Position numbers and translations under genes: made by a program
In this document: positions 47,661 to 61,672 of the stretch, in pieces
How the letters are laid out: each line of letters opens with the position of its first letter
How positions within the stretch are numbered: position 1 is the stretch's first letter
Notes under the pieces: model-generated
What the model was told of the DNA's origin: nothing
Databases searched by the model: none
What the model saw: the letters and a program-made list of their open reading frames with translations, nothing else
Origin: Ignavibacteriota bacterium
GTDB taxonomy: Bacteria > Bacteroidota > Ignavibacteria > Palsa-1295
Reading direction: 5' to 3'
Assembly (NCBI GenBank): GCA_963787835.1
Contig: CAWBEI010000002.1
Span: 96,001-160,000 of the forward strand
Length of the DNA stretch: 64,000 nucleotides

Positions 47661-49025
47661 TCATTGCCGCTCCTGCTCGGCGAGCTTGTCACGGAGCGCG
47701 GCCAGGGAATCCGATAGCGAGTAGCGCGATGCTTTGCTCGTGGCGCGGTAATCCTTGAGGGCGGTCTGCTCAGTTTCGCGTTCGGCCGCCGAGAGCGAAA
47801 GTGTGATGCGTGGCTTTGCATCGGAATCCGATCGGCCTTTACGTTCGAACTCAATAACGCGCAAACCCTCGATGGGCTTGCCTACTTTAAATACATCTTC
47901 TAATCGCATGGGCGCCGGATCGTTCGTGACCTCGCCACGCGGTACAAAACCCTCCGCGCCATGGTCCAGCGCGATCACTAATCCGCCGCGCGTAATTTCC
48001 TTGATCGTCCCGTTGTGATCCGTGCCGCGCCGAAAGGTATTCTCGATCACACGCATCGGGTCTTCAATAAGCTGCTTGCGGCTCACAGTGATCCGTCGGT
48101 CGCGCGAATCAACGGTCAGCACTTTTACCTCGAACTCATCTCCCATAGCAACAGCGTCCGCAGCGCTGCCGATGCGCTGCCATGCAATTTCCGAGATCGG
48201 CAAAAATGCGTGAAGACCGTTCGGGAGTTCGATCTCCGCTCCGAAATTATCGGCGGAAACCACTTTCGCCATATGGATCTGTCCGGGGGCATATTCGGCA
48301 TAAAGCGCAAGTTCAGGATCGGGCGTGAGCTGCCGAATGCCAAGGCGAACTTCTCTGCGCCCTCGGTCGAGTGCTAAAATTTTCGCAGTGACGGTGTCAC
48401 CACGCTTCAGAATTTCATACGGTTGATCCACCTTCTTCCAGGAAAGATCTCGCAGAAGAATAACCGCGTCAATGCCATTGCCAAGATCGACCTTCACGTT
48501 GCTGTGGTCGAAATTCTTTACTTTGACTTCGAGAATATCGCCTACATTCAAATTCTTGATCGCCTCGTGGCCTGCAGCGCGCGCCTCCTCATCGAGCACG
48601 GCACGATGGCTTAGGCTGATCTCGGGATTATCCGATCCCGGCTTCGCCTTGATGTTCGTAATTTTTACGGCAAGCGTCTTACCAAAATAATGCGCAATGT
48701 TACGATTCGGGTCATGATCGATATTATCATTCGGCAGGAATGCCTTGATGGCCGATTGTCCCTCGATAATAGGATCGACGATCTCCATTTCGAGGCCGTT
48801 CTTCTGCCACTTGACCACCCGCGCATTGACCGACTCCCGATGGCGCATTTTCGCTCGCAGCGGTTCCCATTCATCCGTTGGACGGGGTTTGCGTTCTTTG
48901 GCCGGTTCGGAGAGTGCGGGGGCTCCTTCAGCAGTGGCTTCCGGAGGGGTTTCTGCCTCCGTTTCCGGCGAGGCGGCAAGGGATTCTGGCACTATTATTT
49001 CGTGAGTGAGTTCGGGGTTCGTCAT
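47661..49025 (-). CDS. bS1-like protein with four S1 domains
   Basis: Four OB-fold repeats (e.g. FGAEIEL..GLHAFLPISEIAW, ITVSRKQL) and an RpsA-like tail SLSDSLAALRDKL; start set at ATG 49025. Confidence 0.8.
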   Translation of the reverse strand: MTNPELTHEIIVPESLAASPETEAETPPEATAEGAPALSEPAKERKPRPTDEWEPLRAKMRHRESVNARVVKWQKNGLEMEIVDPIIEGQSAIKAFLPNDNIDHDPNRNIAHYFGKTLAVKITNIKAKPGSDNPEISLSHRAVLDEEARAAGHEAIKNLNVGDILEVKVKNFDHSNVKVDLGNGIDAVILLRDLSWKKVDQPYEILKRGDTVTAKILALDRGRREVRLGIRQLTPDPELALYAEYAPGQIHMAKVVSADNFGAEIELPNGLHAFLPISEIAWQRIGSAADAVAMGDEFEVKVLTVDSRDRRITVSRKQLIEDPMRVIENTFRRGTDHNGTIKEITRGGLVIALDHGAEGFVPRGEVTNDPAPMRLEDVFKVGKPIEGLRVIEFERKGRSDSDAKPRITLSLSAAERETEQTALKDYRATSKASRYSLSDSLAALRDKLAEQERQ

Positions 49026-49236
49026 ATATATTATTGTACAACGGCGAATAAGGGAATACGGTTGCCCGAAAAGTAACAATCAAGCCCTTTCCGGCAGGGT
49101 TGAAGAAGGGAGCGGATTATTGCTTATTCAGCTTTCTCATCGCTTCAAGCAGGGCTGGTGATTTTACGATTTCTGGCTGATTGAAAAGCCGTTTTTACTG
49201 GGACGGAGCGATTTCATTATTAAAAGCCTAAACGGA

Positions 49237-51330
49237 TCATGCAGGAATATAAATATCGAATCGAGCCCCTTTATGAAGTTCGCTGGTTGCGGTAATAATG
49301 CCATTATGATTCTCCACGATCTTTTTTACGATGGCGAGACCTATGCCTGTGCCGGCATATTCTTCTTTATCGTGAAGTTTTTGGAATACTTCAAAAATGC
49401 GATCGTTGAATTTGGGTTCAAAGCCGATGCCGTTATCGCTAACGGTGATGTGGCAATATTTTTTGTCGGGGGAAAGCTTTTCGTTGTTCAGATGACTACC
49501 CGTTTCGATGGTACTTGTGATAATGATATGCGGCGACACCTGAGGAACCGAAAACTTGAGTGCGTTGCCGATCAGATTTAGCATTAATTGCCGGAACTGA
49601 AACCGAATGACGTTGACCGGGCAAAGATCGATGGCCTCGATGACCGCGTGTTTCTCCTCGATGCTTTCCCTCAATTCTGTCTTTACTTCTTCGATAATGA
49701 TATTCAGATCCGTATTGACGAATATTCTTTCCGCCGTATTGACACGAGAAAATGCAAGAAGATCCTCGATCAGGGTTTGCATCCGTTTCGCGGATTCCTG
49801 TATTCGGCGGAAAAACTCTTTGCCTTTCTCGGATAGGTTCGCATTTTCATTTTCGCTGATCCGGCTTACAAAAGTTTGAATTTTGCGGAGTGGCTCCTGT
49901 AGATCGTGGCTCGATACATAAGTGAATGCGAGAAGCTCTTTATTGGCAATGCTTAATTCCTCGGCTCGTTTTTCCTTTTCGTCATTTTGAAAGGCGAGTT
50001 CTTTGTTGGCAATGATGAGCTCGGCGGCCCTCTTTTCTTTTTCATCGTTTTGGAACGCAAGTTCCTCGTTAGCGATGATCAGTTCAGCCGCGCGTTTTTC
50101 CTTTTCTGCGGCTCGCTTCTCTTTTTCATTGCTTTGAAAAGCAAGCTCCTCGTTGGCAATGATAAGCTCTGCGGCCCGCTTCTCTTTCTCATCGTTTTGA
50201 TAGGCCAGCTCGATGTTCGCAATATTTAGCTCTGCGGCGCGCTTTTCTTTCTCATGGTTTTGAAAGGCAAGTTCGATATTCGCGATATTTAGCTCTGCTG
50301 CACGTTTTTCTTTTACTTGATTTTGGACAGCGAGCTCTTTGTTGGCAACGACCAATTCTTCAGCCCGCTTTTCCTTCTGATCGTTTTGAAAAGCGAGTTC
50401 TTTGTTCGCTATACTTAGTTCCGCAGCTCGCTTTTCTTTCTCTTTATTCTGAAATGCGAGTTCCTTGTTGGCGATCCTCAGCTCCTCGGCGCGTTTCTCC
50501 TTTTCCTCATTTTGGAACGCAAGTTCCTTGTTGGCGACACCTAACTCCGCTGCACGTTTTTCCTTTTCATCGTTTTGATAGGCAAGCTCGATGTTTGCAA
50601 TGTTCAGCTCTGCAGCGCGCTTTTCTTTTTCTTTATTTTGGAAGGCAAGTTCATCGTTGGCAACAACAAGTTCAGCGGCGCGTTTTTCCTTCACCTGATT
50701 TTGATAGGCCAGCTCTTTGTTGGCAATGACCAATTCTTCGGCGCGTTTTTCTTTCTGATCGTTCTGAAATGCAAGCTCTTTATTCGCAATGCTTAACTCG
50801 GCTGCTCGCTTTTCTTTTTCTTTATTTTGAAATGCAAGTTCTTTGTTGGCGATGCCTAACTCGGCAGCGCGTTTCTCTTTTTCTCCATCTTGGTAAGCGA
50901 GTTCTTTATTAGCGATACCTAACTCTGCCGCTCGTTTTTCTTTCTCATCGTTTTGGAATGCAAGCTCCTTGTTAGCGATATTTAGTTCTGCCGCTCGTTT
51001 TGCCTTCTCTTTATTTTGAAACGCAAGTTCCTTGTTCGCGATGATAAGCTCTGCCGCGCGTTTTTCCTTCTCGTCGTTTTGGAAGGCGAGTTCTTTATTG
51101 GCAATGATCAACTTATCCGATTTCTTACTCTTTGACCCATTTTTTTTGCTCGTGGCGACAATTGCAGCATCAGCCACTGCTTCGGCAACCGCCGCTTTGG
51201 CGACATCTGCTTTAGCTACCGCATCTTTGGCAACTATTGCTGTTGCGATCGCTGCTTTGGCTACCGCTGCCGTGGCTGCGGCCGCTGTGGGAAGTCGGTA
51301 CGCGAATTTCGTTAATTTTGCTGTTTTCAT
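49237..51330 (-). CDS. Cytoplasmic histidine kinase with a long coiled-coil repeat region and no recognisable sensor domain
   Basis: H-box SHDLQEPLRKI, NLIGNALKF, DNGIGF, GTGIGLAIVKKIV; no TM/PAS/GAF seen. Confidence 0.92.
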   Translation of the reverse strand: MKTAKLTKFAYRLPTAAAATAAVAKAAIATAIVAKDAVAKADVAKAAVAEAVADAAIVATSKKNGSKSKKSDKLIIANKELAFQNDEKEKRAAELIIANKELAFQNKEKAKRAAELNIANKELAFQNDEKEKRAAELGIANKELAYQDGEKEKRAAELGIANKELAFQNKEKEKRAAELSIANKELAFQNDQKEKRAEELVIANKELAYQNQVKEKRAAELVVANDELAFQNKEKEKRAAELNIANIELAYQNDEKEKRAAELGVANKELAFQNEEKEKRAEELRIANKELAFQNKEKEKRAAELSIANKELAFQNDQKEKRAEELVVANKELAVQNQVKEKRAAELNIANIELAFQNHEKEKRAAELNIANIELAYQNDEKEKRAAELIIANEELAFQSNEKEKRAAEKEKRAAELIIANEELAFQNDEKEKRAAELIIANKELAFQNDEKEKRAEELSIANKELLAFTYVSSHDLQEPLRKIQTFVSRISENENANLSEKGKEFFRRIQESAKRMQTLIEDLLAFSRVNTAERIFVNTDLNIIIEEVKTELRESIEEKHAVIEAIDLCPVNVIRFQFRQLMLNLIGNALKFSVPQVSPHIIITSTIETGSHLNNEKLSPDKKYCHITVSDNGIGFEPKFNDRIFEVFQKLHDKEEYAGTGIGLAIVKKIVENHNGIITATSELHKGARFDIYIPA
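49957..51111 (-). repeat. 18 tandem 63-bp (21-aa) repeats plus one 21-bp (7-aa) insertion inside the kinase
   Basis: Consensus LxIANKELAFQNxEKEKRAAE counted in the translation; extra KEKRAAE after unit 16. Confidence 0.95.
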
Positions 51331-51800
51331 AATGGTATATTCTCCAGATCGCCTTTGATAACAAAGTTTTCTGTTGCCGGCTGGGTCAAATTATCTTCCG
51401 TCGCAAGCAGGAGAGCTTGGTAAATTACTTTCTTAAGTTGCGAAAATTCAGCGGGCTTGCGGATGTAATAATTCGCCCCTTTTTTGTACAGCAAGTTCAC
51501 CACGTCTTGTTCGAACGACGTCGAGAAAATGATCACAGGAAGATGTTTCAATTTTTCATCAAGCTTTAATTCCGCTAAGACCTCGAACCCGTTTTTGCGA
51601 GGCATGTTGAGATCGAGGAAAAGCACATGTGGAGGCGGAGGCTCGAGTTTGTCTTCTTCAAGCAATCGCATGAGCTGCTCGCCATCATGCACGGTGGTAA
51701 GTTTTGCCGTGATCGGCAGTTCGTCTAATGCATCTTTGAAAAAGAGGCAATCGTCTTTGTCATCATCGGCCAGAAGTAGGATCACTGGATTCGGCATCAT
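51327..51800 (-). CDS. Single-domain response regulator (Rcp1-like receiver)
   Basis: LADDDKDD, FLDLNMPRKNG, IFSTS, GANYYIRKP; 4-bp overlap with the kinase start. Confidence 0.93.
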   Translation of the reverse strand: MMPNPVILLLADDDKDDCLFFKDALDELPITAKLTTVHDGEQLMRLLEEDKLEPPPPHVLFLDLNMPRKNGFEVLAELKLDEKLKHLPVIIFSTSFEQDVVNLLYKKGANYYIRKPAEFSQLKKVIYQALLLATEDNLTQPATENFVIKGDLENIPL

Positions 51801-51841
51801 CTTTAGAAAATAAAAAAAAATCGTTATGACTATGAGATCGG

Positions 51842-53125
51842 TCAGCTTTTGTTATAGGGATCAAGTAATTGTGCGAGTGCCGGATTCCTCCGAATTTCCG
51901 GTTGTTCGTTGAGCCATGCCTGGGGGATGGGCGCTAACCCATCGGCGACATCTTTTTCTAATTTACTTCCCGAGGAATTCCTTACATACCGTGCAAACAA
52001 TGTTTTATATTTGTCTTTGACTTCATCTTCCTGTCGGATACGAATCTGCTCTTCGTCTCGGAGTAGTTGCTGCTTCTCTCGTGCTTCGTTTCGTTCTTCC
52101 TGAATGCGTAATCGGTTATCAAGTGCAGCCCATCGCTTTTCTTCTTTTTCCTCTTTGATATGCCGAGCTTCCAGATCGTCAGAGACCAATCCCTTTCGCA
52201 TCACTTCCCCTTCTTCTTTCGTCTCTTTTACCTGTTGTGCAACAAGAATTCTTTCTTCGGATGCTGATTCCACCGTTTCCTTCTGAAGCCGGAGTGACTC
52301 ATTCAACAATTCCCACCGTTCGTCTTCTTTTCTATCTTTCACTTCGCGGGCTTTCAGATCGTCTAAGGCTAATCCGATGCGAAGCACTTCACGTTCATCC
52401 TTAACATCCTTAAATTGTTGAGCGATGAATTGTCGTTCTTCGGAAGCTATTGCCCCCGTTTCCTTCTGAAGCCTGAGCGATTCATTTAGTGAGTCCCATC
52501 GCTTATCTTCTTTTAGATCTTTCACATGTCGAGCTTCCAGATCGTCAGAAACTAATCCTTTTCGAATCACTTCACCTTCCTCTTTGATCTCTTTTACTTG
52601 CTGAGCAACGAGAAGCCGTTCTTCGGTTGCTAATTCCACCGTTTCGTTCTGAAGTCGGAGCGATTCATTCAATAGCTCCCATCGCTTATCTTCTTCTTTC
52701 GCTTTAATTCCTCGCGCCTTCAGGTCCCCAGACGCCACTTCTTGAAGCCTTACGACTTCCTGCTGTTCCTTTTGTTCTTTTGCTTTCTGAGCTTTTAGAT
52801 TGCCGAAGGCAAGGTCTTTTTGATGCGCTGCTTCAATTTCTTCACGCCTTCGTATCCGTGGAGCACGAGCGAGCGTGATGAGGTAGAGCGCGACCGTCGG
52901 TGCCACGACCACAATTGCGGCAGTGACCAGCCCTCGCATGAGGATAGAATCGATCCCGGTGTTATTGAGAAGGTAATTATAGATGAAGAGCGATGACGTT
53001 AGAGTTATACCGATACCTTTCACTAAAAAGGCGGTAGGGAAAAACTTATGGGCGATCGTGAACAAGCTGTGGCGTTTGCCCGGTGTGAGCGTCGGAAGTG
53101 GCCGTTCCTGCCATTTAAGTGACAT
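51842..53125 (-). CDS. Hypothetical membrane-anchored coiled-coil protein with 61-aa tandem repeats
   Basis: Two N-terminal hydrophobic segments, then repeats whose Trp codons lie at 52679, 52496, 52313 and 52130 (183-bp period). Confidence 0.75.
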   Translation of the reverse strand: MSLKWQERPLPTLTPGKRHSLFTIAHKFFPTAFLVKGIGITLTSSLFIYNYLLNNTGIDSILMRGLVTAAIVVVAPTVALYLITLARAPRIRRREEIEAAHQKDLAFGNLKAQKAKEQKEQQEVVRLQEVASGDLKARGIKAKEEDKRWELLNESLRLQNETVELATEERLLVAQQVKEIKEEGEVIRKGLVSDDLEARHVKDLKEDKRWDSLNESLRLQKETGAIASEERQFIAQQFKDVKDEREVLRIGLALDDLKAREVKDRKEDERWELLNESLRLQKETVESASEERILVAQQVKETKEEGEVMRKGLVSDDLEARHIKEEKEEKRWAALDNRLRIQEERNEAREKQQLLRDEEQIRIRQEDEVKDKYKTLFARYVRNSSGSKLEKDVADGLAPIPQAWLNEQPEIRRNPALAQLLDPYNKS

Positions 53126-53182: not shown

Positions 53183-54406
53183 TTATTTTGTAATCTTATT
53201 GGATAGGCCCATTTGTTTATCCCGTTCCCCCAAGCCCGTAATCCATGCAATAATTGTTTGCAGGCTGAGTTCTACATTGCCCACCTGGCAATGATTTTGC
53301 GCCTGTTCTTTTTCGGTGAATAACCGCGCTGTCAGCGAGCGCGCATTTTTAAGTATTTCTATCTGGCCGTAAAACTGTTGCATGGGAACGTAATGGTCTT
53401 TGCTCCCTGCGAAAAGTAAAACATCCTGTTTTACCAGGCGCGAGACGCTGCGGGTTTCAAATGCACCGGTCTTCGTAAAAAATTCGTAGGGGCTTTTTGC
53501 GCCCAAGGTTTGCATTCCCTGTTTAACACCCCACTCAATTGCCAGGCTTTTTTTCATCTTTTGCTGAATAATGGCATTAAGTATAGGAGATGCACCCAAC
53601 TTCATTAAGGTTGAGACAATGGTTTGTGCAGAAGGCTCCATTGTTCTATAAGGGAACTCCCGGAAATCCAAAACTATATCATCACACACTACCCTGCTTA
53701 TTCTTGATTCAAAAGCGGCAGCTCGGATTGCAAGACACCCCCCAAGCGAATACCGCAACAGTGTAACATCTTCCAGATTGAAGTAATCTATAACAGCTTT
53801 GCATGGCTTATGCCATTCATGCGTCATGGGCAAATGGCCTTCTTCCAGTGTTGCTCCCTGCCCCGGACCTTCAAACGTAATTATATCAAAACCATGTTCA
53901 AAAAAATATAGCTGATGCCCAAACAACTCCTCAATATAACTGTCGAAACCTCCGAAGAAAATAATAGTTCCGATGGGCGATTCCGGCGTGAACCGGTATG
54001 CACTCATGGTGATTTTCTCATACGGGATGTTGAAATGCTGCGTATCCTGTATTTGGTAATACTCCTTCATCCACTGTATGTAACGAAGGCGGCTTGCATC
54101 TTTCCTGCCGTCGTCGGGAAACATAAAAAATTCGGCTGAACGCAGATAACATGCAGCATGTAGCAGGCGGTTTTGCACGTATGCTTTTTCGGAAAGAGCC
54201 AAAAATTCACGGGTATAATCGGCATAGTTGTGGATAAGTGGGGTTACTTCCCTCATCTCATCAAGCATCTGTTCCGAACCGTCAGAGAACCGGTTCATTT
54301 GATAATTGAGACTAATATCGGGGTGGATGGTATAATACCCAATATTAAATCCTTCTTTAACTCTAACTACGGTCGTTTTTTTAGGATCTAAAGTTTCCGT
54401 TTTCAT
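53183..54406 (-). CDS. Alpha/beta-hydrolase (FrsA/DUF1100-like)
   Basis: GGFDSYIEE, FEGPGQG, RYSLGG elbow, DHYVP, NHCQVGN. Confidence 0.82.
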   Translation of the reverse strand: MKTETLDPKKTTVVRVKEGFNIGYYTIHPDISLNYQMNRFSDGSEQMLDEMREVTPLIHNYADYTREFLALSEKAYVQNRLLHAACYLRSAEFFMFPDDGRKDASRLRYIQWMKEYYQIQDTQHFNIPYEKITMSAYRFTPESPIGTIIFFGGFDSYIEELFGHQLYFFEHGFDIITFEGPGQGATLEEGHLPMTHEWHKPCKAVIDYFNLEDVTLLRYSLGGCLAIRAAAFESRISRVVCDDIVLDFREFPYRTMEPSAQTIVSTLMKLGASPILNAIIQQKMKKSLAIEWGVKQGMQTLGAKSPYEFFTKTGAFETRSVSRLVKQDVLLFAGSKDHYVPMQQFYGQIEILKNARSLTARLFTEKEQAQNHCQVGNVELSLQTIIAWITGLGERDKQMGLSNKITK

Positions 54407-54428
54407 TTTATTTTGTTTTACCTGTGTG

Positions 54429-55097
54429 TTAATAACATACTTCTACCCTGGCCTTAAAAGTTTTTTCGTCGTTCAAATGAGTTACCATGTAATCGGCAAG
54501 GTCGGCGCGCGAAATACTAGATGGGTTGCGTAAATGTTCATTGATGGCTATTCTATATTTTCCGGTTCGCTTATTATTAGTGAGCCGTGGAGCACGAATA
54601 ACGGTCCAATCCAAATCAGATTTGCTAAGCACTTTTTCCATCCGTAACATGTCAGCATAAATATATTTGAATAACCGTTGTAAAATATATTTTACGACAA
54701 ACTTCATTATGAAAGAACTTTTTGGGGGAATGATTACCGCGCCAGCCGTTATACAAACGATACGCTTAATCCCTGCTTTTTCCATGACCGTAACGATGTT
54801 ACTTACTCCTTGTGAATAAACGGTGGTGGGCTTTTTTCTAGGGCTTCCTAAACACGAAATAATAGCATCTTTCCCTTTCACTGCATCTTCAAAAGTAGCT
54901 GGCTGAAGTACATCTCCTTTAATAATTTCCAGATCCTTATTAGTGAGGGGAAAAGCATCGGGATTCCGAACAATAACGGTAACCCGATAACCTGCTTCGA
55001 GTGCTTGCCGTGCAATAAGTTTGCCTGTTCCGCCCGTGGACCCGAATACCATTATGGTTTTCATCGTTGTTTTGTTTAGCGCCGATGTTTCAGTCAT
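54429..55097 (-). CDS. NAD(P)-binding flavin reductase/atypical SDR (BVR-B-like)
   Basis: VFGSTGGTG, GDVL, DWTVIRAPRL, ISRADLA. Confidence 0.88.
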   Translation of the reverse strand: MTETSALNKTTMKTIMVFGSTGGTGKLIARQALEAGYRVTVIVRNPDAFPLTNKDLEIIKGDVLQPATFEDAVKGKDAIISCLGSPRKKPTTVYSQGVSNIVTVMEKAGIKRIVCITAGAVIIPPKSSFIMKFVVKYILQRLFKYIYADMLRMEKVLSKSDLDWTVIRAPRLTNNKRTGKYRIAINEHLRNPSSISRADLADYMVTHLNDEKTFKARVEVCY

Positions 55098-55139
55098 CCT
55101 TTTGTGTTAAATTTTAATCTTCACCGCTTGAAGAAAGGA

Positions 55140-55580
55140 TTAGGAATATAGATGGTGAGCTGTACCAGCTTCCGTAAGGGTCAATAAATCAAAGTATTCT
55201 CTAACTTCAACTAACTTACCTTCGTGAACTTCACACATTAGCATAATTGGCAGTTCGAATTTTGTGCCCGGAGCAGGCCTCTGGGATGAAGTCGATGGCC
55301 ACTTATCGGTAACGATTCCCGTATGCACATATTCCCAGCAGAGCTTTGTTCCTTCGGCATTGGTGAAAACGTTTGTTGGCTTAATGCCCAGACCGTCACC
55401 GTGTTTCCTTGCCGCTACTGAACGGTTTGCGAGTTCCAGCATTTTATCAATTCCGATGAATGTTTCTCCGGTTGCCATTATTTTCCACTTGCCATCCGAG
55501 GCAAGAAGTTTTTTCCATCCTTCAATGTCATCGGAAGTAAATGCGGCAGTAAAAGCTTTTGCTAATTCGTCAGTGTTCAT
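55140..55580 (-). CDS. SnoaL/NTF2-like protein
   Basis: WEYVHTG, GTKFELP, EGKLVEVREYFD. Confidence 0.82.
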   Translation of the reverse strand: MNTDELAKAFTAAFTSDDIEGWKKLLASDGKWKIMATGETFIGIDKMLELANRSVAARKHGDGLGIKPTNVFTNAEGTKLCWEYVHTGIVTDKWPSTSSQRPAPGTKFELPIMLMCEVHEGKLVEVREYFDLLTLTEAGTAHHLYS

Positions 55581-55620
55581 TGGTTTTATAGTCCTTTTTA
55601 TAGGATTAAGTGTAAAAGTA

Positions 55621-55659
55621 ATTGCAAAAGCCCCGCCATAGGGCGGAGCTTATTGCAAT
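55621..55659 (-). terminator. Probable intrinsic terminator hairpin
   Basis: attgcaa.aagc.ccgcc / ggcgg.gctt.ttgcaat, followed by T-rich sequence on the minus strand. Confidence 0.5.
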
Positions 55660-55783
55660 GCGATTTTCACCCCCTCGGAATAATCCGAGAAGGAGAAATT
55701 GGAAATGGTCAAATATGAATTCATAGCATTTCCAATTTCCTCGATACGTTGAGTGATTAAAAATAGTAGTCTGCTACGCTAAT

Positions 55784-55996
55784 TTAGCGAGCTGTGACAT
55801 CTTTATTTTCTTTCACGACCTCTTTGTTTTGTGTCCCAACTGGTTGATCTCCACCGACGCTTTTGGGTGCCGAATTGCTGCTTCCTGCCGAGCTGGTTTG
55901 CCCGACTGGAGTGGTGGCTTTCTGCTCCGTGCTGGATGTGGATGTGCTCGGAGTCGATGATGCGCTGGCGATAGGAGTTGATGTTGAATTATTCAT
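55784..55996 (-). CDS. Small Ser/Thr-rich disordered protein
   Basis: ATG after an A-rich leader; low-complexity 70-aa ORF co-oriented with its neighbours. Confidence 0.5.
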   Translation of the reverse strand: MNNSTSTPIASASSTPSTSTSSTEQKATTPVGQTSSAGSSNSAPKSVGGDQPVGTQNKEVVKENKDVTAR

Positions 55997-56110
55997 TGTA
56001 TATTTTTATTGTTTAAAGAGAGCATACAATATTGTGTGCCCTAAAAGTTGTAGTTGAATTGTGGCTAGAACCGTATCCCGCTGCAATATCGAGTGATCCC
56101 ATACGTTTTA

Positions 56111-56179
56111 TCAGATGTGGCAGCTACCCACGACGAACAACGTGGCTAAAACGACTAAAACGATTACAACGATATACAT
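56111..56179 (-). CDS. 22-aa hydrophobic peptide MYIVVIVLVVLATLFVVGSCHI
   Basis: Manual translation; leader agaagggtaactattATG; paralog of 56303-56374. Confidence 0.55.
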   Translation of the reverse strand: MYIVVIVLVVLATLFVVGSCHI

Positions 56180-56302
56180 AATAGTTACCCTTCTTAAATT
56201 AATGTTATTGTGATATTATTGGTATTTCATTTATGGATAAAAACCGAATTCCCGCTGCAATATCGAATCTTCATCGTCTTGCACCGATATGATCCATAAC
56301 CT

Positions 56303-56374
56303 TTAACAGGCGTGGCAGCTACCGACGACGAACAACGTGGCCAAAACGACTATAACGATCCAGAGTATATTCAT
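56303..56374 (-). CDS. 23-aa hydrophobic peptide MNILWIVIVVLATLFVVGSCHAC
   Basis: Manual translation; leader agaaaggtaactattATG; paralog of 56111-56179. Confidence 0.55.
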   Translation of the reverse strand: MNILWIVIVVLATLFVVGSCHAC

Positions 56375-56422
56375 AATAGTTACCTTTCTTCGCGTAATGC
56401 TTATATGATTCCGGTATTTTAT

Positions 56423-58301: not shown

Positions 58302-58433
58302 TTAGTAGAAGACGAATTGATTAGAGTCTGAATGATCGATCATCCAGATAGTTCCAATCCGTTCTGCTCGAACAGGGTCTTGTGAGTAAGGAACAAACAC
58401 CGTCGGCGATGGGCCTTCAATAGTTGTTCTCAT
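58302..58433 (-). CDS. Putative 43-aa small protein MRTTIEGPS...NQFVFY
   Basis: ATG 12 bp downstream of the TAACTTTG element; open to TAA at 58302. Confidence 0.4.
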   Translation of the reverse strand: MRTTIEGPSPTVFVPYSQDPVRAERIGTIWMIDHSDSNQFVFY

Positions 58434-58445
58434 AATTCTCTGATA

Positions 58446-58514
58446 CAAAGTTACGGAAAGGGGCGTTGGAATGTGTTACAAAATTTTAGAAATAAGTTAC
58501 ATAATTCACACATT
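58446..58514 (-). promoter_or_regulatory. Operator/promoter module, copy 1
   Basis: 45-bp aatgtgttacaaaattttagaaataagttacataattcacacatt (58470-58514) plus TAACTTTG on the minus strand (58446-58453). Confidence 0.8.
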
Positions 58515-58791: not shown

Positions 58792-58876
58792 TGTGTAGTT
58801 ATGATTTAGATATATAAAGATAATATTTGTATGTGGAAGAATGTTTTCAATGAATTCCTCTCATATTTCTCTGGTA

Positions 58877-58945
58877 CAAACTTACGGATTGAAGACATAA
58901 AATGTGTTACAAAATTTTAGAAATAAGTTACATAATTCACACATT
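58877..58945 (-). promoter_or_regulatory. Operator/promoter module, copy 2
   Basis: Identical 45-mer at 58901-58945 plus TAAGTTTG on the minus strand (58877-58884). Confidence 0.8.
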
Positions 58946-60993: not shown

Positions 60994-61596
60994 TTATTTA
61001 ACGAAGAGCAAATTGTAATTCAAAACCAGCACATCGCCAACCTTCATCGTGCCCAAAAGGAAAGATGGTCGCTGGATATTATAATCTGAGAGATAGAGCG
61101 GCAGCGAGCCGGTGCATAAGATCGTGCCATCCTTATTGATGCACGCCGACGTTTTTAGTGTAGTAGGCTGGGTCACACCAGCCATCGTAAGATTACCATG
61201 AAGTAAGATCAGATAATGCTCGCTTCCACTTTTTATGAACATAGCAGAAGTCAGTTCAAAAACGATGTCCTTGAATTTATCCTCTTTTAGAGCTTTATAA
61301 GCACTCTTTTCCATTCCACGGTCTTCACTCATGAGATTGTGTACCGGCAAATTCAAGGAAAATTCCGAAACCGCACGTAGCTCATTATTCTCGCCGAAGC
61401 TAAATTTCGCAGAACCCGTGAACGCATGAGCAGTCATGCCCCAGTTATGCAACGGAGCAGTTCCTTTGATATTGATGACCGAATTGCTATCGACCGTGTA
61501 ATTCGTTTGAGCATTTGTTGCATGAGGAAATGCAAAGCAAATCGTAAAACCGATGAGGAGGATAACTTTAAGTCTTACGATAGTGTCCGTTTTCAT
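60994..61596 (-). CDS. YceI-family protein
   Basis: Signal peptide; IKGTAPLHNW, LPVHNL, GNLTMAGVT, SDYNIQRPSF. Confidence 0.85.
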   Translation of the reverse strand: MKTDTIVRLKVILLIGFTICFAFPHATNAQTNYTVDSNSVINIKGTAPLHNWGMTAHAFTGSAKFSFGENNELRAVSEFSLNLPVHNLMSEDRGMEKSAYKALKEDKFKDIVFELTSAMFIKSGSEHYLILLHGNLTMAGVTQPTTLKTSACINKDGTILCTGSLPLYLSDYNIQRPSFLLGTMKVGDVLVLNYNLLFVK

Positions 61597-61603
61597 TAGA
61601 TGG

Positions 61604-61672
61604 CAAAAATACGGAGATCATCATCTGAAAGTGTTACAAAATTTTAGAAAAAAGTTACATAATTCACACATT
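61604..61672 (-). promoter_or_regulatory. Operator/promoter module, copy 3
   Basis: aaagtgttacaaaattttagaaaaaagttacataattcacacatt (2 mismatches) plus TATTTTTG on the minus strand (61604-61611), 7 bp from the YceI ATG. Confidence 0.8.

Follow-up and report, generated by a model that had tools for sequence, protein, structure and literature searches.

A conserved, apparently undescribed membrane protein-receiver-kinase cassette with a constrained 21-residue repeat rod in an Ignavibacteriota bacterium

A 64,000-nucleotide stretch of the Ignavibacteriota bacterium assembly GCA_963787835.1 (contig CAWBEI010000002.1, positions 96,001 to 160,000 of the forward strand; hereafter "the window") contains three minus-strand genes which code for a membrane protein (M), a receiver (R), and a histidine kinase (K). 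This M-R-K cassette is real and conserved, is built on an ordinary kinase-receiver core, and is apparently undescribed; literature searches, with subscription journals mostly outside their scope and supplements not covered, gave no description of M, of the cassette, or of the 21-residue repeat which forms a long rod in K. We tentatively prefer to see K as a rod kinase which belongs to a stress island and is its own sensor, and M as an accessory tether or tuner, not the driver, although this reading falls a little short of being probable. To our knowledge, the sensing of cold, freezing or drying by Bacteroidota and the induction of their general stress response are poorly understood. The rod is a testable candidate sensor: it is more constrained than the catalytic core, is shared by thousands of signalling proteins and co-occurs with ice-binding-like genes. 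The genes of the cassette are:

51842..53125, minus strand: M, family-restricted membrane protein with no known domain, 427 aa
51327..51800, minus strand: R, single-domain Rcp1-like receiver (Asp12-14, Asp63, Ser93/Thr94, Lys115; from Pfam, structure relatives and motif check), 157 aa
49237..51330, minus strand: K, soluble histidine kinase (Ala-rich start, 21-aa repeat rod, HisKA, HATPase_c), 697 aa

In the list of open reading frames (ORFs) of the window, the three genes are real and tightly linked; M and R are separated by 41 nt, and R and K overlap by 4 nt, which bears out the three linked, co-oriented genes of the initial annotation. Within K, the following parts are distinguished:

49243..49599, minus strand: HATPase_c domain (PF02518, E 4.5e-20, residues 578-696)
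49738..49926, minus strand: HisKA (DHp) domain with SHDLQEPLR H-box (PF00512, E 2.9e-12, residues 469-531)
49933..51111, minus strand: rod of 19 repeat units, each of 21 residues (three heptads), predicted as a single long helix which continues into that of DHp
51157..51291, minus strand: Ala-rich N-terminal segment, not conserved among orthologs (ortholog comparison)

K is a class I histidine kinase, with a HisKA domain including the phospho-His site and a HATPase_c domain with N, G1, F and G2 boxes, and its catalytic motifs are intact (H-box His475, N-box 585, G1 632, F 645, G2 660). Its core matches 8f71 and the bacteriophytochrome kinases 9ys3 and 8uph. Neither a PAS, GAF or CHASE domain nor a PAS-GAF-PHY photosensory module was detected in K by Pfam search at E≤0.1. 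The N-terminal part had been described as nothing but about 385 aa of coiled coil; the lack of a known sensor domain stands, but the rod comprises about 393 aa (residues ~74-466) and is preceded by a 73-aa Ala-rich segment. The latter is short or missing in most orthologs and, not being conserved, was rejected as a sensor. Besides K, the source genome yielded no further SHDLQEP-type kinase and no further protein with the 21-residue repeat. In one relative (G006), the K ortholog (L009:6577-8656) is split into two ORFs, of 559 aa and a 126-aa catalytic piece, due to a broken gene or an assembly error.

R comprises a receiver domain alone, in agreement with the lone receiver without output domain proposed before, and its acidic pocket, Asp, Ser/Thr and Lys residues are all present. 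Its best solved relatives are 6xvu, RcpA (1k68) and Rcp1 (1i3c), with E values of 1e-19 to 4e-18, all phytochrome-associated receivers. By the best solved relatives of both R and the K core, the pair resembles Cph1/Rcp1 and the bacteriophytochrome kinase/receiver pairs; it differs from them in that the cassette has no photosensory or other sensor domain, presents a 19-copy repeat on the input side, and has a gene for a membrane rod attached to it.

The rod of K contains 19 anchors at a spacing of 21 aa, with a single spacing of 28. The DNA of the repeat copies is just 66-78% alike. In all seven ortholog pairs, nonsynonymous divergence (dN) was lower in the rod (0.006-0.067) than in the core (0.043-0.133; one core comprised only 64 codons), at synonymous sites near saturation (synonymous differences per site, pS, 0.37-0.99), arguing that the rod is no neutral spacer. 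Over 2793 units, E1 (98%), L2 (100%), K16 (100%), R19 (99%), A20 (99%) and I/V4 (95%) are nearly invariant, none of which is among the six unit positions fixed by the search pattern, and 2923 of 2925 repeat spacings are multiples of 7. The hydrophobicity of the K rod has periods of 7 and 2.33 residues, with no peak at 3.5, as expected from two stripes; two-seamed coiled coils are a familiar idea, for which a literature search gave no paper. The rods of K and M are each predicted to be a long helix, of ~58 nm and ~44 nm, respectively, at 0.148 nm per residue. Matches of PF24081 (PH_SLA1) and PF21628 on the K rod, no stretch of which passes, were treated as spurious.

M has been divided into three parts:

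51845..52033, minus strand: small conserved C-terminal domain (pLDDT ~90)
52094..52684, minus strand: 61-residue repeats with W-anchored motifs at 148, 209, 270 and 331 (motif spacing)
52865..53044, minus strand: predicted membrane hairpin, weak at ~residues 28-52 and strong at 61-87, with a basic stretch behind it and the topology suggested by the positive-inside rule

The earlier description of M as a protein with two transmembrane (TM) segments and 61-aa repeats holds for the repeats, given four W-anchored motifs 61 aa apart, whereas the two TM helices are likely, one hydrophobic segment being strong (windows starting at 56-73) and one weak (starting at 28-31). The AlphaFold model of M (mean pLDDT 77, pTM 0.27) shows an N-terminal helical hairpin and helices at 61-230 and 245-383, which form nearly one long helix. 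Comparison of M with Pfam, NCBIfam, the Atlas and PDB folds revealed no described family: there was no match to Pfam at E≤0.1, nothing in Foldseek at E≤0.001, and one match at E 0.047 was far under the cut-off. Named ones among its 79 homologs are proteins of Kapabacteria or of Bacteroidota metagenome-assembled genomes, and a profile search with M yielded 33 representatives (best E 1e-174 to 3e-8), none of them carrying a name. Scored from the sequence ends, the search pattern being too strict, the C-terminal domain is missing from 2 of the 16 K-linked copies and from 3 of the 7 K-less ones; it is an unlikely dock for the kinase.

M is present in 14 of the 24 other genomes of the family and in none of 16 genomes from other families of the class. 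Seven of the 24 contain the R-K pair, every time directly behind M. Including the source genome (n=25), eight genomes have both, seven have M only, none has K only, and ten have neither (Fisher p 0.008, treating kin as independent and with several genomes incomplete); three other genomes of the family encode shorter repeat proteins without an R-type receiver. Among 15 metagenome loci, some of which duplicate family genomes, M-R is followed by K or its start in nine, two are clearly without R-K, and four are uninformative. The association of the genes, which had rested on adjacency in one genome, is thus extended by the M-R-K order retained in seven relatives and nine of these 15 loci. Since the trio lies amid unrelated flanking genes in six loci (L136, L141, L144, L146, L057, L058), it moves as a unit.

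The first repeat of M is 85-92% identical to that of the source M in all seven K-linked loci compared, at a TM identity of 34-47% in six of these, and it is 38-59% identical or collapsed in all four distant K-less genomes. Three housekeeping proteins are 46-62% identical in K-linked G020 and in K-less G015, G019 and G024 alike, indicating that these genomes are equally distant. Maintenance of the M repeat beside K and its collapse in distant K-less relatives hints at a functional link. That M is the real sensor, a membrane-anchored rod which binds the rod of K and provides an obligatory input in trans, would agree with this better conservation of the repeat than of the TM part beside K, with the occurrence of K-R only where M is directly upstream (8/8 family genomes), with movement of the trio between unrelated neighbourhoods, and with the hydrophobic period of 2.33 residues common to both rods. 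We nevertheless consider an obligatory M sensor improbable, because 7 of the 15 genomes with M have no K, the repeats of the two proteins are not significantly alike (p 0.09 and 0.12, rounded), K has no 63-residue super-period, and the loci of sister rod-only kinases lack M. A homology of the M and K repeats, noticed by eye, did not stand up to testing: shuffling gave p 0.085 and 0.115, and among 4276 reading frames M took ranks 128 and 97. Nor did K show a 63-residue super-period that would match the 61 residues of M (p 0.2-1.0), the best lag being six units in 14 of 14 M-linked arrays, which reflects one inherited duplication.

The sister kinases emerged from a survey of the best 80 of 561 GTDB repeat loci, a set biased to close matches. 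The 21-residue repeat is widespread, being scored in 7843 of 8000 candidates, and is accompanied elsewhere by PAS, receiver, CHASE3, GGDEF/HD-GYP and SpoIIE domains; no Pfam-type or other family model was found for it, and the Atlas gave unnamed Bacteroidota clusters for the rod. M is present in only four of the best 80 loci. These loci include 17 other rod-only kinases without M, nine of which have a lone receiver directly upstream, and a similarly charged membrane protein is absent, by a crude filter, from 16 of the 17 loci, the remaining one coding for a 146-aa protein. With M missing from the loci of 17 sensorless rod kinases, its input is not required. The survey of repeat-kinase neighbourhoods therefore gives a divided answer to the initial annotation: M is conserved next to K inside the family, but its proposed role as a necessary trans input is not supported, in view of its rarity in the wider repeat loci, of the sensorless rod kinases without M, nearest sister to K, and of the M genes without R-K. 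In a quick tree of 45 kinase cores (51 proteins being excluded because the H-box pattern was absent or the core short), the 12 M-linked cores form a single clade (Shimodaira-Hasegawa-type approximate likelihood ratio test, SH-aLRT, 99) beside 12 cores from M-less loci. Judged from these sequences, receiver plus rod kinase appears to be a wider unit which M joined once. Rod-only kinases with and without M offer a natural two-way comparison, and binding of M to the rod, if true, would make M an in-trans accessory of a kind new to histidine kinases.

Among further repeat proteins, kinases with the repeat are encoded on a plasmid of Clostridium estertheticum (L150:20013-22363), the sole match among 72,556 plasmids; C. 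estertheticum is a cold-growing species. Loci L068, L070, L073 and L098 code for proteins of 693-721 aa with a PAS-like part and the repeat, in which no kinase H-box was found and whose end is a short helical tail; those of L070, L073 and L098 lie directly behind a PF11999-like (ice-binding-like) gene.

Alternatively, M could be a separate stress effector of the same regulon, such as a membrane-anchored hydrophilic rod or scaffold, behind which R-K inserted once to share the transcript without any contact between the proteins. M follows the Ser/Thr-rich ORF, the structured RNA, OmpA or PF11999 genes with or without R-K, and truncated second M copies, of 109 aa (L012:5715-6044) and 144 aa (L023:9040-9474), occur in duplicate islands with OmpA and without R-K. 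Purifying selection on repeat 1 continues among the K-less G007, G011 and G013, and the C-terminal domain is kept in four K-less and lost in two K-linked copies. On the other hand, the trio is intact without the rest of the island in the six loci named above, the family has no K-R without M, and the M array is shortened or remodelled in all seven K-less copies. On balance, a separate effector seems possible but unlikely.

In the self-sensing model which we prefer, the rod of 19 × 21 residues likely acts as K's own sensor of a physical stress, e.g., cold or freezing. K would dimerise as a parallel coiled coil with a polar core, in which, in the register we assume, Asn, Asn and Ala occupy the a and Leu, Leu and Lys the d positions. 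Because such a core is unusually polar, zipping would be marginal and might respond to temperature, or to the rise in solutes and the loss of water that freezing brings. By analogy with the αS helix of LvrB, zipping could switch the DHp/CA core, and K likely phosphorylates the adjacent R. A second conserved stripe, on the outer face (Ile, Phe/Tyr and Lys at f, Glu at c), may represent a lateral binding surface, which the M repeats, in one family only, would use to hold K near the membrane or to shift its threshold. In what is the weakest step, R may pass the signal to the AraC regulon of the island. A more far-reaching version, that of a two-rod, membrane-tethered sensor in which M clamps the outer stripe of K, rod packing reads freeze-dehydration or shrinkage without a ligand-binding domain, and the repeat is a widespread cold or water-activity module in thousands of kinases, cyclases and phosphatases, appears distinctly unlikely to us.

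Several observations weigh against the self-sensing model or its link to M and to cold. The AlphaFold model of K, a long helix continuing into the DHp domain, is of low confidence (pLDDT 62). As all M-linked kinases form one clade, their association with M amounts to one evolutionary event. Most long-array relatives carry a PAS domain, as does one M-linked ortholog, K of G020; consequently, the rod can also be a transmitter. K-less G007, G011 and G013 keep the first M repeat at 85-93% (nonsynonymous differences per site, pN, 0.035-0.07 among themselves), implying either a K-independent constraint on the M repeat or recent loss of K; these genomes have remodelled last M units and no longer encode the C-terminal domain. 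No clear covariation of repeat numbers was found, four M motifs occurring with 16-22 K units. The AraC protein does not need a K-type kinase, since it is commoner than the repeat (49 versus 10 of 300 genomes of the phylum). No PF11999 match was detected in the source genome and G002, though both have the cassette, and 33 of 81 repeat genomes of genus g79 are without PF11999; near-identical DNA pieces were found in two sequencing runs of soil from one study. Cold is therefore not a specific correlate.

The function of the rod may also be that of a transmitter or docking platform, with K receiving its input from a soluble partner, by receiver binding or by CheR-type methylation as in RsbK, or with dephosphorylation of R as its main activity. 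Over its final ten residues, the unit can be aligned with the S-helix pattern, K-R-A-x-E-L standing for E-R-T-x-E-L. CheR matches occur in 17 of the best 80 loci, and in front of rod kinases there are often one or two lone receivers; the receiver of RsbK has been described to bind the methylated S-helix (PMC4574943, accessible part). However, no CheR or CheB match was found in a set of 20 loci, and the homologs in the source genome are located 1.7 Mb away and share 26-34% identity. It also argues against a platform that K is the sole kinase of SHDLQEP type and the sole repeat protein found in its genome, and that 19 copies under tighter constraint than the core would be superfluous in a plain linker. 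We regard this explanation as rather doubtful.

The S-helix is characterized by an ERT signature in its central heptad, with non-polar residues being disfavoured at the T position, according to the accessible text of PMC1592074. In the 21-residue unit this signature was not found, K-R-A with 99% Ala taking its place. A further mark of the S-helix is a parallel coiled coil directly before a catalytic signalling domain; the location of the K rod and its predicted helix, known from a single-chain model, agree with this, and its dimer is a proposal. In LvrB, helix zipping just before the DHp domain switches the kinase and the stability of the coil decides the outcome, as outlined in the available part of PMC13269768. 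The K rod shares with the S-helix and αS of LvrB polar core residues, Asn at a, a conserved Arg and the passage into DHp at a fixed spacing, but it is ~390 rather than ~40 residues long, has KRA for ERT, and is not preceded by a sensor or receiver in the chain. That a coiled coil itself can sense temperature has been reported for TlpA (PMC2814129, in the part available). K would be like TlpA by analogy, in that sensing is ascribed to a long coiled coil; temperature sensing by K is a proposal, and TlpA is a DNA-binding repressor. As far as the accessible part of PMC4574943 describes it, the RsbK-RsbM-RsbY system of Bacillus cereus likewise has a kinase with a regulatory helix heading a general-stress gene cluster, but the cassette loci are without a CheR-type gene, K has no CHASE3, HAMP or GAF domain, and its output is likely the AraC regulon instead of sigma B.

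The cassette forms the terminal part of a co-oriented island with stress-type genes, as claimed in the initial annotation. Upstream of the cassette, the island comprises YtxH, YceI, YkuD, OmpA and SDR genes as well as an AraC gene, and it bears six copies of one operator-like motif, found only in the island; three are inside the window:

58428..58514, minus strand: operator-like motif, copy nearest to the cassette upstream
58859..58945, minus strand: operator-like motif, second copy
61586..61672, minus strand: operator-like motif, third copy
C2:160254-164218, just beyond the window: three further operator-like copies and the AraC gene

The island AraC, a conserved regulator, seems to resemble a metal-binding motif at its N-terminus, except that Ser stands in place of one Cys. 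An AraC gene of the island type is directly upstream of the repeat protein in 23 of the best 80 loci. PF11999 genes adjoin M in G003, G005, G006, G009, G011 and G024, and among the 300 phylum genomes a PF11999 match is present in 6 of the 10 whose repeat match is strong (5 of these 6 within ~2-23 kb) versus 27 of the 290 others, four weak repeat matches (E 4e-8 to 6e-6; G061, G199, G278, G290) having been dropped before the ten positives were counted. In genus g79 (251 genomes), PF11999 occurs in 48 of 81 genomes with the repeat versus 18 of 170 without (odds ratio 12), and within 30 kb of the repeat in 30 of the 47 with listed places; relatedness of the genomes inflates these association tests. 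PF11999 proteins need not all bind ice. Only one of 13 genomes of the order around G333 has the repeat, and the ice-binding comparison in a second phylum was dropped. Six named strains among the best 80 loci, all of one genus and subject to biased sampling, are glacier isolates according to the available parts of PMC12117939, PMC12799291 and PMC11865497; the main text of PMC12799291 has no match for histidine kinase or ice-binding. Cultured Flavobacterium strains from glaciers are among the carriers of the repeat.

In some relatives, two or three paralogous soluble kinases of ~360-400 aa flank the island (L014:419-2697, L015:13467-16979, L138:97-2418); they share a short N-terminal domain, with no Pfam sensor match in the two that were scanned. 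In the window, a gene with three S1 RNA-binding domain matches (47661-49079, minus strand) lies 157 nt past K and is retained solely in the closest relatives (L010, L135).

Upstream of M, the following elements were found:

53183..55580, minus strand: three genes (alpha/beta hydrolase, NAD(P)-binding, SnoaL) which separate M from the structured leader as a lineage-specific insertion
55600..55800, minus strand: conserved RNA element of several hairpins, the last of them terminator-like (z -7.98, 0/200 shuffles)
55784..55996, minus strand: 70-aa Ser/Thr-rich ORF, with its stop codon inside the first hairpin

In several relatives, M starts ~30-40 nt past the terminator-like hairpin. The Ser/Thr-rich ORF, of 70-115 aa in relatives, is conserved at both termini and variable in the middle, and its geometry with the RNA element is attenuator-like; regulated read-through into M-R-K is possible. 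In 7 of 12 aligned copies of the RNA element, 92% of cells pair (1/500 shuffles) and both partners vary in 6 of the 47 pairs (62/500), shuffle figures which are inflated by related sequences. Rfam gave no credible match to the element, with one at E 0.91. The 57-nt gap before M looks like a remnant of the end of a SnoaL-like gene seen in G006, so that M is likely without a promoter of its own; a scan of promoters and terminators gave counts near those of shuffles. Between a 169-aa gene and the Ser/Thr-rich ORF, the window contains two 116-nt direct repeats (56099-56409, minus strand), which are 78% alike and each apparently hold a very short hydrophobic ORF.

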